Shown piece after piece: positions 20,803-26,541 of a stretch of DNA of 64,000 nt. The notes beneath the pieces are model-generated. The model was not told the origin of the DNA, did not search any database, and saw nothing but the letters and a program-made list of their open reading frames with translations. The translations under genes were made by a program, and so were the position numbers. How positions within the stretch are numbered: position 1 is the stretch's first letter; each line of letters begins with the position of its first letter. The DNA is taken from the sequence record PP274704.1; one strand, written 5' to 3'. This DNA comes from Escherichia phage ECp13.

Positions 20803-21278
20803 TTGTAAAATATATCAAGGGCGATATTGTCGCCCTATTTCTTCAAGGTAATATTATTGCGCACGGGTGTAATTGCTTCCACACAATGGGCTCTGGCGTA
20901 GCGGGTCAATTAGCAAGAGCCTATCCCAAAATTTTAGAAATAGATAAAACTACTACCGAGTACGGTTCTCGCGATAAATTAGGCGATATGTCTGTTGTTT
21001 TTAAACATAGTCCTACGGGATTTGGTATATGCTATAATTTGTATACGCAATACGAACCGGGTCCTAATCTTGATTATGGTGCTTTAGTAAACTGCATGAT
21101 AGAATTAAATCTACAGGCAGAAACCCTTTTGTTTAAACCAGTAATTTACATTCCACGCATAGGTTGCGGTATTGCTGGTGGTGATTGGGACAAGGTTTCT
21201 AAATTAATCGACATGTTTACTCCTGATATTGATTTAATAGTGGTGGATTATGAAAGTACATTACCCGCATCCGTTTGA
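20799..21278 (+). CDS. macro domain protein (ADP-ribose binding / ADP-ribosyl hydrolase-like)
   Basis: 159 aa; KGDI...AHGCNC...MGSGVAG and later IGCGIAGG resemble macro-domain motifs. Confidence 0.65.
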   Translation: MIVKYIKGDIVALFLQGNIIAHGCNCFHTMGSGVAGQLARAYPKILEIDKTTTEYGSRDKLGDMSVVFKHSPTGFGICYNLYTQYEPGPNLDYGALVNCMIELNLQAETLLFKPVIYIPRIGCGIAGGDWDKVSKLIDMFTPDIDLIVVDYESTLPASV

Positions 21279-21462
21279 TCCTAAAAACAGAGTGGAAATT
21301 ATTCGTCAATGGGAACGCATTTGCCGTACTAAATGCCCAATTAATAGTCCACATGATGTAAATAAAGACTATATTGGAACATTCGTTGAATATACCTTTA
21401 TTGATAAGAAAGGTCGTAAACAGCACGTAGAAGAATATTGCTTAAAGGTTACATGGTTATGA
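21250..21462 (+). CDS. hypothetical small protein
   Basis: 70 aa; overlaps 3' end of macro gene in another frame. Confidence 0.4.
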   Translation: MKVHYPHPFDPKNRVEIIRQWERICRTKCPINSPHDVNKDYIGTFVEYTFIDKKGRKQHVEEYCLKVTWL

Positions 21463-21665
21463 GCCAAACTAGTATTCTTAAAAATGCACACTGCGAAAAG
21501 TGTGAATGGCCAGTTGTTTTTGCTTTATGTAATGATGAAATGGCTTGTGATTTCGATTATTGGTGCTATTGTTCTAATAAAGGATGCATCAATCATAAAG
21601 GTGAAGGATTTTATTCGGGATTTTATCCTTATCCTGATTTCGTTAAAGAAGGTAAACCGAAATGA
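21459..21665 (+). CDS. Cys-rich small protein (putative metal-binding)
   Basis: CEKCEWP...CNDEMACDFDYWCYCSNKGC. Confidence 0.45.
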   Translation: MSQTSILKNAHCEKCEWPVVFALCNDEMACDFDYWCYCSNKGCINHKGEGFYSGFYPYPDFVKEGKPK

Positions 21666-21835
21666 ATAGTTTTGAGTTACAATATGAAGTGTTACGTGAA
21701 CTTGATAATTTAATTGAACTCGCTGTTAATAAAGGTTTTGCCATTGGAATCGGTCAAAAAGATACTGATCATTTAACTATGGAAATATTTAAGCAAAAGC
21801 GAATTATTTTAAAACTCCTGGAAATTAATATATGA
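21662..21835 (+). CDS. hypothetical small protein
   Basis: 57-aa ORF, ATGA overlap with preceding and following ORFs (hand-translated). Confidence 0.35.
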   Translation: MNSFELQYEVLRELDNLIELAVNKGFAIGIGQKDTDHLTMEIFKQKRIILKLLEINI

Positions 21836-22017
21836 GTCTGAGTAAAGAACAAAAAGATAAATTGTTTGAGCTTATCCATGAACTTCTAGATGAGCATACA
21901 GAAGCAAACACCTTTTATGATGAATACGGTCCGCTATCTCCCGAACAGCAAGAAGAATTTGCTGATCGGTTTGATAAGAAAGAAAATGAATTAATAGCTT
22001 ATGTGAATACGCTTTAA
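21832..22017 (+). CDS. hypothetical small acidic protein
   Basis: 61 aa; translationally coupled. Confidence 0.45.
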   Translation: MSLSKEQKDKLFELIHELLDEHTEANTFYDEYGPLSPEQQEEFADRFDKKENELIAYVNTL

Positions 22018-22026
22018 GAAGGTGAT

Positions 22027-22608
22027 ATGGCGAGTTTAATTTTTACTTATGCAGCAATGAATGCTGGAAAATCTGCTTCTCTTTTGACTGCTGCGCATAA
22101 TTATAAAGAACGCGGAATGGGTGTATTAGTTCTTAAGCCTGCTATTGATACTCGCGATTCTGTCTGTGAAGTCGTTTCTCGCATTGGAATTAAACAGGAA
22201 GCGAATATTATTACGGATGATATGGATATTTTTGAGTTCTATAAATGGGCTGAAGCACAAAAAGATATTCATTGCGTATTTGTAGATGAAGCTCAGTTTT
22301 TAAAAACTGAACAGGTGCATCAATTAAGCCGAATTGTTGATACATATAATGTTCCTGTTATGGCTTATGGGCTAAGGACCGATTTCGCTGGAAAATTATT
22401 TGAAGGTTCTAAAGAACTTTTGGCGATTGCAGATAAACTTATTGAACTAAAAGCAGTTTGTCATTGCGGTAAAAAAGCGATTATGACAGCTCGATTAATG
22501 GAAGATGGAACACCAGTTAAAGAAGGCAATCAAATCTGTATTGGTGATGAAATTTATGTTTCTTTGTGTAGAAAACATTGGAATGAATTAACTAAAAAGC
22601 TCGGTTAG
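22027..22608 (+). CDS. tk: thymidine kinase
   Basis: 193 aa; P-loop AAMNAGKSASL; matches T4 Tk. Confidence 0.9.
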   Translation: MASLIFTYAAMNAGKSASLLTAAHNYKERGMGVLVLKPAIDTRDSVCEVVSRIGIKQEANIITDDMDIFEFYKWAEAQKDIHCVFVDEAQFLKTEQVHQLSRIVDTYNVPVMAYGLRTDFAGKLFEGSKELLAIADKLIELKAVCHCGKKAIMTARLMEDGTPVKEGNQICIGDEIYVSLCRKHWNELTKKLG

Positions 22609-22875: not shown

Positions 22876-23169
22876 ATGGCCTTAAAAGCAACGGCACTAT
22901 TTGCCATGCTAGGATTAGCGTTTGCTTTATCTCCACCAATTGAAGCGAATGTCGATCCTCATTTTGATAAATTTATGGAATCTGGTATTAGACACGTTTA
23001 TATGCTTTTTGAAAATAAAAGCGTAGAATCATCTGAACAGTTCTATAGTTTTATGCGAACGACTTATAAAAATGACCCGTGTTCTTCCGATTTTGAATGT
23101 ATAGAGCGAGGCGCGGAGATGGCACAATCATACGCTAGAATTATGAACATTAAATTGGAGACTGAATGA
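22876..23169 (+). CDS. rI: lysis inhibition regulator RI (antiholin)
   Basis: 97 aa; N-terminal signal-anchor; matches recalled T4 RI. Confidence 0.82.
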   Translation: MALKATALFAMLGLAFALSPPIEANVDPHFDKFMESGIRHVYMLFENKSVESSEQFYSFMRTTYKNDPCSSDFECIERGAEMAQSYARIMNIKLETE

Positions 23170-23552
23170 AATTCAGCGACTTTTCACAAAGTGGAAAACC
23201 TTCAAAGGCAGATGAATACTTAGGTTTATTAATGGCTGCACAAGCTTATTTTCATTCTGCACATTTTGAAACTAAAAGTTATGCTAGACACAAAGCATAC
23301 GATTTTATTTTCTCTGAGTTGCCAGATTTGATTGATAAATTTGGTGAGCAATATTTGGGGTATTCTGGTAGAAAATACACGCCTTCTATTCCAGATGCCA
23401 GTAAACTTCCTACCGACACAATTAAAATGATTGATCGCATACTAGACCAATCTAACAGCATTTATAAAGAAATGCCTCCAGCCATTCAAAGCACGATAGA
23501 TGATATTACTGGGATGTTTTACCAGAGTAAATATCTTCTTTCCCTCGAATAA
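23166..23552 (+). CDS. hypothetical protein (rI.-1-like)
   Basis: 128 aa; ATGA overlap with rI. Confidence 0.55.
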
Positions 23553-23556
23553 CATT

Positions 23557-23581
23557 AGTCTCCTTCGGGAGACTTTTTTCA
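23557..23581 (+). terminator. intrinsic terminator
   Basis: AGTCTCC-TTCG-GGAGACT followed by TTTTTT. Confidence 0.7.
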
Positions 23582-23589
23582 TTTTACCG

Positions 23590-23619
23590 GTTTACTTTCC
23601 ATTTGAGCTGTGATACTAT
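23590..23619 (+). promoter_or_regulatory. early promoter
   Basis: -35 GTTTACT, 17 bp, -10 TACTAT; cassette near-identical to 62747-62810. Confidence 0.6.
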
Positions 23620-23647
23620 ACAACCATCGGATAAAGAGGAGAACATC

Positions 23648-23836
23648 ATGAAAATTGAAGCACTCAATCAAGAAGGAAATATCTACGTCATCATTAATGG
23701 TGATTTTTTCGTCAACATGGATGAAGTTACTAGTGAAGAACTTGTAGAACTTCTTAAGAAACGCTATAGTATGTGTGATGAAGCTGCGACTCATATGGCG
23801 TGTGCAATATTTTCTCTTTCATATGTGGTGGAATAA
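23648..23836 (+). CDS. hypothetical small protein
   Basis: ATG at 23648 after RBS AAGAGGAG; 62 aa. Confidence 0.45.
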
Positions 23837-24018
23837 TGATTAGTATTGAACAAGCAGATAAAATTAAAGAATTGGTAGCTTTAATTCGCAAAGCAGATGA
23901 GGAACGCATTAACTTTGCCTTATCAGGTATTGAAGAATTTGAAGCTAAAGTTGATAATGCTTTAGAAGCGTTAGATATGTTTCTTGATGAAATTATCGAT
24001 CATAATACGAGAGTTTAA
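23836..24018 (+). CDS. small helical protein, tandem paralog family member
   Basis: 60 aa; N-terminus [17 protein letters not shown] shares pattern with next three ORFs. Confidence 0.45.
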   Translation: MISIEQADKIKELVALIRKADEERINFALSGIEEFEAKVDNALEALDMFLDEIIDHNTRV

Positions 24019-24020
24019 GT

Positions 24021-24215
24021 ATGCTAACACGTGAACAGTTTGAAAAAATCATTAAATTAGCACGTGATGTTGAAATAGATTCATACCAATTGGCAGTTGA
24101 GCATTGTGAAGGATACTCATACGATGGTATAGAAGCAGCTAAAAAGGATTTGGATAAATCCAAAGCTAAGTTAGTTCAATATCTTGAAATGATTAGGTGG
24201 AATAATGAAAACTGA
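24021..24215 (+). CDS. small helical protein, tandem paralog family member
   Basis: 64 aa; MLTREQFEKIIKLARDV. Confidence 0.45.
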   Translation: MLTREQFEKIIKLARDVEIDSYQLAVEHCEGYSYDGIEAAKKDLDKSKAKLVQYLEMIRWNNEN

Positions 24216-24378
24216 AAAGCAGATGTTTTTAATGAAGCTAATTGAAGAATATGCTAATGCAGTTTCTGACTATGAGTATTCTGCTAGGGAAAGAGGTACA
24301 GCTTTCGCAAAGGAAGAAATGAAAATCATGGTTGATGCTCACACAAAGCTTCAGAATTTTATTGAAAACGTCATTTAA
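24205..24378 (+). CDS. small helical protein, tandem paralog family member
   Basis: 57 aa hand-translated; MKTEKQMFLMKLIEEYANAV. Confidence 0.4.
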   Translation: MKTEKQMFLMKLIEEYANAVSDYEYSARERGTAFAKEEMKIMVDAHTKLQNFIENVI

Positions 24379-24380
24379 TT

Positions 24381-24410
24381 GTTTACAAGTTGGCAAGGTT
24401 ATGGTATAGT
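24381..24410 (+). promoter_or_regulatory. early promoter
   Basis: -35 GTTTACA, 17 bp, -10 TATAGT; imperfect inverted repeat around the -10. Confidence 0.55.
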
Positions 24411-24542
24411 AATCTTGTCAACTGCCAAGGAGAAGAGAATGAAAGTTTTGTTTGTTGTGTATGTGATGATTCAATATAATTATCCAATGTTTACTTATAA
24501 TCTGGTGAACAACATTATTGATATTATTCAAAGGAGTATGTA

Positions 24543-24728
24543 ATGACAAGTGAGCAGGCTTTTAAATTAAGAGAATTAATTGAGATGTATAGTAAAGCTG
24601 TTCATACATCAACAGTTATTGATGAATCAGCTTTCTCTGGATATGCTAACAAGATTAAATATAAAACTCTTATGGAAGAAGCTAAAGTAAATCTTGATTC
24701 TTATATTGAAACTTTAATTGGTGAATAA
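24543..24728 (+). CDS. small helical protein, tandem paralog family member
   Basis: 61 aa; MTSEQAFKLRELIEMYSKAV. Confidence 0.45.
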   Translation: MTSEQAFKLRELIEMYSKAVHTSTVIDESAFSGYANKIKYKTLMEEAKVNLDSYIETLIGE

Positions 24729-24996
24729 TGTGAGCTTTCCGAAATTAGAAGTAGGTGATTTAGTCTTAACAAAATTGTGGAATGATGCTCAATCAGTAGA
24801 AATCTGCCAATATCGTGGAGCAACAGGTAATTTGATGTACACGATTTATAATCCAGAAATTTTGTTAGAGTGTCATTTGGAACGCTTTATAAAAGACACT
24901 GATAGTATGCCTTATAGTGTATCGATTGTGCGTAAATCTGATACAAAGGAATACTCTAAAATTTTAGAACAAATTTATGTCAGTAAAAAGGATTAA
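24718..24996 (+). CDS. hypothetical protein (start codon uncertain)
   Basis: ORF-track start is TTG; in-frame GTG at 24721 and 24730; about 90 aa. Confidence 0.4.
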   Translation: MVNNVSFPKLEVGDLVLTKLWNDAQSVEICQYRGATGNLMYTIYNPEILLECHLERFIKDTDSMPYSVSIVRKSDTKEYSKILEQIYVSKKD

Positions 24997-24997
24997 T

Positions 24998-25531
24998 ATG
25001 AAACGATTAGTATTAGAAGTTAGTCCACTTTTTGGCGAATTGGCTATAGAAAAAGTAAATAATATGTATCGTTTGACGCAAGAAGACGATATGCTATATT
25101 TTACGCCCAGTGAAATCATTCATTTAACCCAAATTGAATATCCTTATACTGATAAAATAGTAAGCATTAATGATGAGCACAAAATTCATTTTTATTCTTC
25201 ATGCCCAGGATTTAATATTAAAAGTGAGTCAATGTGTTTATCAGTTATCCATTGGGATAGTTTTATAGATAAGATTAAATATTTTTATTATTCTAATGAA
25301 AGAAAACATAGTTTAAAATGGTTTAAAAATTGCAATGCTATTATTACTAACGCTTGCAATCAGAATGATGAAACTGTTTTAAATGTGTCAAAATGCTATG
25401 AAGATGGAGATGTCTTAACTATTCGTCAAATTGACGATTTTCGATCGCATATTGTCACATTTACCAAAGACGAAGCTATTGCGCTAAAGACTTATCTTGA
25501 TTCTGTCATTCCAACTATGATTTCAAAGTGA
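24998..25531 (+). CDS. hypothetical protein, paralog of 25538-26059
   Basis: 177 aa; C-terminus AIALKTYLDSVIPTMISK resembles AMIKYLTTVTPSMKG of the next ORF. Confidence 0.55.
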   Translation: MKRLVLEVSPLFGELAIEKVNNMYRLTQEDDMLYFTPSEIIHLTQIEYPYTDKIVSINDEHKIHFYSSCPGFNIKSESMCLSVIHWDSFIDKIKYFYYSNERKHSLKWFKNCNAIITNACNQNDETVLNVSKCYEDGDVLTIRQIDDFRSHIVTFTKDEAIALKTYLDSVIPTMISK

Positions 25532-25537
25532 GGAAAT

Positions 25538-26059
25538 ATGTTTATTTCAAGTGGAAGTGGTTTAATTCGCGTTGAATTTAAAAATGACATCTTCTTTATT
25601 CAAGGAGATGATATTATTAAAATGAGTTATGATGAAATTAAGAAAATTTGTAATGCTCTTGAAAATCATGGAAAGGTGAATGCTGTCATTGATATTGGCG
25701 ATTTATGGGTGACACTTTATGAAGTATCCGAAGGATTTAACATTGAAGATGAAAATAACATTTTAGCTATTGATAAAAGAAGTGATTTGTTTGATGTGTT
25801 AAAAGTTTATGAACAGTCAAACGGTGGAAGAAAAGCTGCATTGATTTATCAAAAACCACATTCATGTGGAACTGCTTCAATCATTTCAGATATTGAAGAT
25901 GAAACTGATACTTATATGTGTGTTTTAAAAGCTGGTGGTGACCGTCATCCGGATTTTATTTCTATTCGTCAAAACAATGGAGAAATTTCATTATCAAAAT
26001 CAGAAGCTGAAGCTATGATTAAGTATTTAACAACTGTTACACCTTCAATGAAAGGATGA
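25538..26059 (+). CDS. hypothetical protein, paralog of 24998-25531
   Basis: 173 aa; shared C-terminal motif. Confidence 0.55.
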   Translation: MFISSGSGLIRVEFKNDIFFIQGDDIIKMSYDEIKKICNALENHGKVNAVIDIGDLWVTLYEVSEGFNIEDENNILAIDKRSDLFDVLKVYEQSNGGRKAALIYQKPHSCGTASIISDIEDETDTYMCVLKAGGDRHPDFISIRQNNGEISLSKSEAEAMIKYLTTVTPSMKG

Positions 26060-26541
26060 TTATAACTATGGTTATTAATGAAAACTCTTGGCACTTTAAA
26101 ATTTACTCGGCATTTAATAGCACATGGAATCGTCCAAAAACGTTATGTGCTTATTTTTGGAAAACGTTTCTCCCGGTATTAGCGGTTTCAATTGTTGGAT
26201 TTGCAACTTTAACAGGTGCTGCAATCATTGGCCAAGAAATTTTAATTAAATTCTTTGTCTTTAGTAGTCTATGGACATTAGTTCCGGCTTCAATTGGTAT
26301 AGGTATTTTAGCATTATCGGTCATGGTTCTTATTGCTGTCGGGGCGGTAATTGGTCCTTCTTGGTTGTTAGACAAATATAACGACCGAAAGCTCAATAAA
26401 GAAATTGAGCTCATTGTACAAAACGAAGAACGAATCAAAAATGGACTTGAGCCTATTCAACCCAAGAAATCTATTATCGTCGAATTTTTAAAAGCGCGTA
26501 AAGCTAAAGTATGTCCTGTTATTGAATATAAGGCTGAATGA
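26056..26541 (+). CDS. multi-pass membrane protein
   Basis: 161 aa with about four hydrophobic helices. Confidence 0.55.
   Translation: MIITMVINENSWHFKIYSAFNSTWNRPKTLCAYFWKTFLPVLAVSIVGFATLTGAAIIGQEILIKFFVFSSLWTLVPASIGIGILALSVMVLIAVGAVIGPSWLLDKYNDRKLNKEIELIVQNEERIKNGLEPIQPKKSIIVEFLKARKAKVCPVIEYKAE

Follow-up and report, generated by a model that had tools for sequence, protein, structure and literature searches.

Five short ORFs in the window, the 64 000-nucleotide stretch of phage DNA analysed here, are almost certainly paralogues of a single phage-specific family (Pfam DUF7438/PHROGs 653, 2758 and 4859), as judged from profile matches to their translations. Tandem duplication, at two fixed places in the accessory region of T-even phages, gave rise to the family. 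It is already catalogued in Pfam (PF24219) and in PHROGs, and comes from a group that is among the most intensively sequenced of all phages, so that it is known rather than new. The five genes, designated A to E, are as follows.

21832–22017, + strand: paralogue E, 61 aa, net charge −10 (DUF7438 E 2.9e-19, 69.6 bits; phrog_653 E 1e-26)
23836–24018, + strand: paralogue A, orthologue of T4 mobD.4, 60 aa, net charge −8 (DUF7438 E 6e-13, 49.4 bits)
24021–24215, + strand: paralogue B, orthologue of T4 mobD.3, 64 aa (DUF7438 E 1.5e-17, 64.1 bits)
24205–24378, + strand: paralogue C, intact form of T4 mobD.2a, 57 aa (DUF7438 E 3.5e-16, 59.8 bits; phrog_2758 E 3e-35)
24543–24728, + strand: paralogue D, not present in T4, 61 aa (DUF7438 E 1.5e-14, 54.5 bits; phrog_4859 E 6e-37)

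The original prediction, made from the nucleotide sequence, had described A to D as a tandem family of four small helical proteins. All four ORFs were found where it had placed them, with lengths of 60, 64, 57 and 61 aa, and every N-terminal peptide that it quoted was present in the sequence. Its count of four was too low, however, the window holding five members, of which E at 21832–22017 had been missed.

Gene order and transcription units

The phage from which the window derives is T4-like, of the genus Tequatrovirus. Positions 23500–26100 matched more than 500 T-even phage genomes at 90–97 % identity, the top matches being Tequatrovirus isolates, and the hairpin genes of the window were 95–100 % identical to those in hundreds of sequenced phages. 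The order of genes and signals on the + strand is tk, rI.1, rI, rI.-1, a terminator, mobD.5, A, B, C and an early promoter, after which come mobD.2, D, a tudor gene, two y05I-family genes, a membrane-protein gene and nrdC.11. The features that surround the hairpin genes are listed below.

22027–22608, + strand: tk
23166–23552, + strand: rI.-1
23557–23574, + strand: intrinsic terminator after rI.-1, made of a GC-rich 7-bp stem and a run of T residues after it, marking the end of the upstream transcription unit
23590–23619, + strand: probable T4-type early promoter of the mobD.5-A-B-C unit (GTTTAC, 17–18 nt, TACTAT), read from the sequence
23648–23836, + strand: mobD.5 orthologue, 62 aa, first gene of the unit (phrog_3024 E 4e-43)
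24382–24410, + strand: early-type promoter of the next unit, which comprises mobD.2, D, the tudor gene and the y05I pair (TTTACA, 17 nt, TG-TATAGT)
24439–24543, + strand: mobD.2 orthologue, 34 aa, outside the hairpin family (phrog_3515 E 6.5e-22)

Phages fPS-2 and D5505 carry annotated terminators at the place matching 23557–23574, and in fPS-2 a predicted early promoter is annotated at the place homologous to 23590–23619. The latter promoter fell below the threshold of a generic promoter scan. In T4, the mobD.5 promoter is an established early promoter that has served as an early-transcript control (PMC1702504). The promoter at 24382–24410 was the best sigma-70-type match of the region (10/12 with the extended TG), and we infer it to be the positional counterpart of T4 promoter Pe57.9/Pe57954, whose activity goes up when DksA is missing, in a dksA mutant (PMC6024815).

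Each of the hairpin genes has, on reading of the sequence, a Shine–Dalgarno sequence and a coupled start. The stop of mobD.5 and the start of A share a base (TAATG), 2 nt lie between the end of A and the beginning of B, B and C have 11 nt in common, the TAA of mobD.2 runs into the ATG of D, and E lies 9 nt upstream of tk. The 164 nt gap between C and D holds both the promoter at 24382–24410 and mobD.2, and A to D thus probably lie in two adjacent early transcription units and not in one run. The tandem, translationally coupled arrangement that had been proposed for all four genes consequently holds for the mobD.5-A-B-C junctions, whereas D is coupled to mobD.2 in the next unit and is not contiguous with the others.

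T4 lacks D and the tudor gene as well as the second of the y05I genes and the membrane-protein gene; in its genome mobD.1 comes immediately after mobD.2, and mobD, a homing endonuclease gene, is situated between mobD.1 and nrdC.11. The T4 reference mobD.2a (38 aa) corresponds to the 57-aa gene with a 1-nt deletion and is therefore frameshifted. The proteins of A and B share 95–97 % identity with their T4 orthologues. In A, most of the amino-acid change falls in the hairpin loop, and two alleles occur, of 60 and 67 aa; the loop of B (CEGYSY) is kept in the Gaprivervirus and Dhakavirus orthologues. E was flagged by a local family HMM and has the highest DUF7438 score of all five. It is the counterpart of T4 tk.1/tk.2, both of which are also DUF7438 proteins. 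Two further small ORFs of the region were considered as hidden members of the family and rejected, namely mobD.5 (hhalign probability against the family profile 0.1 %) and a 57-aa ORF at 21662–21835 (hhalign probability <1 %).

Evidence for one family

The DUF7438 model (PF24219) has 57 positions and a gathering score of 25 bits, and A, B, C and D each matched it from position 1 to position 56 or 57 at 49–64 bits. Cross-matches between PHROGs tied subgroups 653, 2758 and 4859 together. In a published T4 annotation table mobD.3, mobD.4, tk.1 and tk.2 were all assigned to phrog_653, together with no other T4 gene. As the Pfam model was possibly seeded from T4 orthologues, a separate HMM was built from orthologues of D alone and run on the complete set of 954 stop-to-stop segments of the window. 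Apart from D itself, the four segments that it ranked highest were C (5e-5), A (2e-4), E (2e-3) and B (0.14). These full-length DUF7438 matches and the recovery by the D-only HMM bear out the proposal that A to D form one gene family.

Pairwise comparison gave a more mixed picture. BLASTP linked A with B (E 2e-3), A with D (2e-4) and C with D (4e-5), and the corresponding Smith–Waterman z scores (2000 shuffles) were 2.9, 4.8 and 5.0; unrelated small neighbours reached shuffle z scores of up to 2.3. D was connected with A, C and E by z scores of 4.6–5.0. No significant similarity was seen by BLASTP or by Smith–Waterman (2000 shuffles) for the pairs A–C, B–C and B–D. Formal alignment, which had been suggested as a check on the family, therefore upheld three of the six pairs (E ≤ 2e-3) and not the remaining three. 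The case for homology rests on profiles, because pairwise BLAST and Smith–Waterman comparisons are too weak for several of the pairs. B is the most divergent member and the weakest link, and it is connected with the other members by way of sequences found in other genera; P0099, for example, combines a B-type loop with A/E-type helices.

Predicted structure

Each protein of the family is predicted to form a single antiparallel two-helix hairpin of about 60 aa. AlphaFold2 modelled A as an antiparallel two-helix hairpin with helices at residues 4–26 and 29–59 (pLDDT 79.6) and B as one with helices at 4–30 and 34–63 (pLDDT 94.7, pTM 0.80), and the helical character that had been put forward for these proteins is thus supported for both. 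The invariant residues E5, L13 and L46 (numbering of A) and the conserved hydrophobic residues nearby fit a helix N-terminus and core contacts. The net charge of all paralogues is negative (−2 to −10).

Foldseek comparison of the A and B models with the PDB returned generic hairpins, all with E > 0.4 and with query-normalized TM-scores of 0.5–0.88; among these were Mediator subunits, FrmR/CsoR, Get1, SSV1 D-63 and designed helical bundles. When one model was compared with BFVD, the RB3 orthologue was the sole significant viral match, the others being uncharacterized phage hairpins. The family profile found nothing below E 0.07 among PDB sequences, and the NCBIfam search gave no match for the hairpin proteins. 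Across Pfam, NCBIfam, PDB sequences and Foldseek, no signal of an enzyme or of a known domain was obtained.

The downstream gene pair and the tudor gene

Between D and nrdC.11 the following genes were identified.

24730–24996, + strand: Phage_tudor domain gene (PF24144 E 1.5e-38)
24998–25531, + strand: y05I paralogue 1, orthologue of T4 mobD.1, 177 aa (T4_y05I_N E 2e-39, T4_y05I_C E 6e-21)
25538–26059, + strand: y05I paralogue 2, not present in T4, 173 aa (T4_y05I_N E 1e-33, T4_y05I_C E 3e-23)

The start of the tudor gene is likely to be the GTG at 24730, the frame being open from 24718. In the annotation of phage ACG-C40 the gene starts at the equivalent GTG.

The genes at 24998–26059 had been recognized as a duplicated pair, and this was confirmed by a full-length alignment of the two proteins (BLASTP, 27 % identity over 176 aa, E 2e-9). 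The C-terminal motif that they were said to share is present, but the likeness extends over the full length and includes both T4_y05I_N and T4_y05I_C; the N and C domains scored 134.4 and 75.1 bits in paralogue 1 and 116.0 and 82.5 bits in paralogue 2, in each case above the gathering score. The pair belongs to a separate family, T4_y05I (PF24449 and PF24448), and not to DUF7438. T4 mobD.1 also carries both domains. T4 has one y05I copy, in contrast with the two tandem copies of this phage, and has the mobD homing endonuclease gene where this phage has the second y05I copy and the membrane-protein gene.

Distribution among T-even phages

The tk-centred loci of other genera were scanned with the family HMM. 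The numbers of copies upstream of tk and between rI.-1 and nrdC.11, in that order, were as follows.

This phage and ACG-C40: 1 + 4
T4: 2 + 2, plus the broken mobD.2a
Mosigvirus: 1 + 2
Dhakavirus: 1 + 2
Gaprivervirus: 1 + 1
Moonvirus: 1 + 1 (weak)
Jiaodavirus: 1 + 0
Metagenomic 173-kb T4-like phage: 2 + 0

In Slopekvirus and Krischvirus no copy was detected by the family HMM at the tk loci, though tk was present; Slopekvirus ORFs of 58 and 70 aa, considered as possible members, were not significant. Presence and absence across relatives, also suggested as a check on the family, thus resolved into copy numbers of 0 to 5 between genera and two fixed places. In the 12 loci, every member was either directly upstream of tk or in the interval from rI.-1 to nrdC.11; in Moonvirus the tk-proximal copy and tk have a homing-endonuclease gene between them.

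When 1.84 billion representative proteins were searched exhaustively with an HMM, 19 representatives were returned at E ≤ 1e-3, and because there were so few the hairpin family is taken to be confined to a subset of Tevenvirinae-like phages. One of the 19, the 3120-aa match P0093, was dismissed as a repeat artefact. Within the phage collection, B was found at ≥90 % identity in 499 phage records and D in 189, and D and the tudor gene travel together as a variable cassette.

Selection, expression and dispensability

The hairpin genes are real genes under purifying selection. Across up to nine Tequatrovirus genomes, pN/pS was 0.23 for A, 0.09 for B, 0.12 for C and 0.37 for D. In time-course omics of T4 infection, mobD.3 and mobD.4 were placed in the early-RNA and early-protein classes and tk.1 and tk.2 in the early-RNA and middle-protein classes, and the mobD.3 and mobD.4 proteins were detected early in infection by mass spectrometry (PMC9697503 supplement).

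The genes are dispensable in the laboratory. A deletion from nrdC.11 to mobD.3 arose in viable genome-reduced T4 phages (PMC9825161), and each of the CRISPRi-ART (dCas13d) knock-downs of mobD.2a, mobD.3, mobD.4, tk.1 and tk.2 received the score ‘Not Fit’ (PMC11879866 supplement), which in our reading denotes no fitness effect.

That the ORFs are chance or decaying frames in the accessory region is scarcely credible. The lack of a laboratory phenotype and the frameshift in T4 mobD.2a would agree with decay, but it is contradicted by the pN/pS values of 0.09–0.37, by conservation across genera, by the proteins detected by mass spectrometry and by the Shine–Dalgarno sequences and coupled starts.

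Possible functions

No functional study of the hairpin family was found in the literature when searched by gene name, locus tag, UniProt-style name or DUF number. A two-helix hairpin of about 60 aa cannot be an enzyme, and as all of the paralogues are acidic, nucleic-acid binding is unlikely. Reasoning by analogy with other small early proteins of T4, which modify or inhibit host factors in takeover of the cell or in counter-defence, we hold with roughly even confidence that these small acidic coiled-coil proteins may act through early binding to a protein partner. A hairpin would dock onto another protein through its helical face and loop, possibly after first pairing with itself or with a sister paralogue to give a four-helix bundle. 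Within minutes of the onset of infection the docked partner, a host protein or possibly one of the phage, would thereby be inhibited or have its activity adjusted, and different paralogues would have different partners. Counting against this reading, the strong conservation of B and C within Tequatrovirus (pN/pS about 0.1), and of the B loop across genera, accords more with a stable partner than with a rapid arms race; for B it suggests such a partner. D, present in some phages and missing from others, and A, with its loop alleles, have more the look of accessory functions that depend on the host.

A more specific form of this idea, which we put forward tentatively and consider rather unlikely, is that the hairpins constitute an expandable arsenal, in which each paralogue, alone or in a mixed four-helix bundle, would neutralize a different host defence or stress protein. 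If this were true, then the paralogues gained, lost or altered in their loops at the two hot spots would vary with the host range of T-even phages; variation of this type is exemplified by the D cassette, the 60- and 67-aa alleles of mobD.4 and the frameshifted mobD.2a of T4.

Binding could also be directed at particular targets. The hairpins might be adaptors of phage nucleotide metabolism that bind thymidine kinase or the dNTP-synthesizing complex, for a DUF7438 gene is found directly upstream of tk in Tequatrovirus, Mosigvirus, Gaprivervirus, Dhakavirus, Jiaodavirus and the metagenomic T4-like phage, and is often translationally coupled to it. Such adjacency carries little weight, however, in phages whose gene order is conserved throughout; moreover, the mobD-side copies adjoin no metabolic gene, Slopekvirus and Krischvirus have tk with no member of the family detected, and knock-down of the hairpin genes was without effect on fitness, all of which makes this proposal improbable. 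We consider it equally improbable that the hairpins modulate transcription by docking on host RNA polymerase or sigma-70, as AsiA of T4 does. Early expression, the detection of the proteins and their small, helical and acidic character would be in keeping with such a role, and Mediator subunits and the helical regulators FrmR/CsoR were listed by Foldseek among the generic matches, but those matches all had E > 0.4 and simply reflect two-helix hairpins. Neither Pfam nor PDB sequences revealed any similarity to AsiA or to any anti-sigma family, and an AsiA-like action would in any event be a special case of binding to a protein partner. Less probable still is a role as Rop-like RNA-binding dimers that regulate RNA–RNA pairing or mRNA stability; the size of 57–64 aa and the helix–loop–helix hairpin resemble ColE1 Rop, but the net charge of −2 to −10 speaks against it, and there was no match to Rop in Pfam and none among PDB sequences.

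Two functions suggested by database names, that D is a replicative helicase loader and that the mobD.4 and mobD.1 orthologues are molybdopterin-guanine dinucleotide synthesis proteins (MobD), have next to no probability. Their sole support is the names themselves, phrog_4859 and, in RefSeq, D being labelled ‘helicase loader’ and the others bearing RefSeq product names. D, a hairpin of 61 aa, gave no match to a loader domain (T4 gp59, DnaC/DnaI) in Pfam, NCBIfam, the PDB or Foldseek, and is too small to accommodate an ATPase or a gp59 fold. Likewise there was no match to Mob protein families, the mobD.4 and mobD.1 orthologues giving DUF7438 or T4_y05I alone. The RefSeq name ‘molybdopterin-guanine dinucleotide biosynthesis protein MobD’ evidently derives from the T4 locus label mobD.x, in which mobD is a homing endonuclease. 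Both names are annotation artefacts.

What is added here to the catalogued family is the fifth copy, the layout in two hot spots, the copy numbers by genus, the frameshift in the T4 reference mobD.2a and the evidence that two product names, both of them widely propagated, are wrong. This matters little beyond tidying the record. Nevertheless, a family that is multi-copy, expressed and dispensable is a reasonable candidate for partner screens of T4 early ORFans.

Comparison with known systems

The closest known system is the DUF7438 set of T4 itself (mobD.4, mobD.3, mobD.2a, tk.1 and tk.2), to which the genes of the window are orthologous, with nothing different in kind. Compared with T4, this phage has an intact mobD.2a and the additional gene D, and one tk-proximal copy where T4 has two.

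In predicted fold and size the hairpins are also like ColE1 Rop, SSV1 D-63, the cytosolic coiled coil of Get1 and the core of FrmR/CsoR, all of them generic antiparallel hairpins of two helices that serve as dimers or as docking modules. None of these gave a significant structural or sequence score with the hairpins of the window. ColE1 Rop is a small helix–loop–helix hairpin that binds RNA, whereas the hairpins of the window are acidic.

AsiA, Arn, Stp and Dmd, each encoded by a single-copy gene, are small proteins that T4 makes early and that bind to proteins of the host. They have no sequence relationship to the hairpins, and differ from them in that the hairpin family is multi-copy; they are likewise early, small, dispensable in the laboratory, located in the accessory region and variable among T-even phages.

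DUF7438 copies in the window

The four tandem ORFs of the original prediction, namely mobD.4, mobD.3, mobD.2a and ORF D (24543-24728), stood as members of the family of predicted two-helix hairpins, but the list was incomplete, as it lacked a fifth DUF7438 copy whose T4 counterpart is tk.2/tk.1. Three further small T-even ORFan genes were found 5' of this paralog.

The fifth DUF7438 paralog and its upstream neighbours
21832-22017, immediately 5' of tk: DUF7438 paralog (E 2.9e-19)
within 21250-21835: DUF7202 gene, tk.3 orthologue
within 21250-21835: Phage_zn_bind protein gene
within 21250-21835: gene for a phrog_3452 protein of 57 aa, helical-looking

The phrog_3452 protein was rejected as a DUF7438 relative (hhalign probability 0.5 %).

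Variation between phages

Comparison of mobD.4 (23836-24018) with its orthologues at loci L001, L013, L014, L016 and L017 revealed two alleles, of 60 and 67 aa. In the hairpin loop they are set apart by an indel of 7 codons together with substitutions, the helices being almost unchanged. ORF D and the neighbouring Phage_tudor gene (together 24543-24996) behave as a variable cassette; D was present in 189 phage records, compared with 499 for mobD.3, and was missing from T4, T2, fPS-2 and D5505. The 57-aa mobD.2a gene was unbroken in the window (24205-24378), in T2 and in ACG-C40. Its T4 version (NC_000866, 7997-8178), annotated as 38 aa, is the same gene frameshifted by a 1-nt deletion: it has become a pseudogene in T4, or the reference sequence is wrong at this point.

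Shine-Dalgarno regions of the two early units

GGAG, the target motif of the RegB endoribonuclease, occurred within the Shine-Dalgarno regions of mobD.2 (24425-24440) and D (24528-24543), but not in those of mobD.4, mobD.3 and mobD.2a. This distribution hints that mRNA fates may differ between the mobD.4-mobD.3-mobD.2a unit and the mobD.2-D unit.

Database product names

The names 'helicase loader' and 'molybdopterin-guanine dinucleotide biosynthesis protein MobD' have spread through RefSeq (e.g. NC_019399 and NC_000866), where they are carried by the 60-aa hairpins (24543-24728 and 23836-24018) and by mobD.1 orthologues; no domain evidence for either name was found in these proteins. The RefSeq label of rI.-1 (DUF5856; 23166-23552), a gene reported to be frameshifted in some T4 laboratory sublines (PMC8573959), is 'starvation-inducible transcriptional regulator'.

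Candidate relatives in Klebsiella phage Fraggle

The interval between the macro-domain gene and tk is a DUF7438 site in other genera. In Klebsiella phage Fraggle, presumably a Slopekvirus (the taxonomy line of its record reads only 'Viruses'), this interval holds a pair of acidic ORFs, 58 and 70 aa long (locus L011, 5725-6110). Both are hairpin-like in appearance, but their scores are only E 0.09-0.3; they may be very distant relatives.
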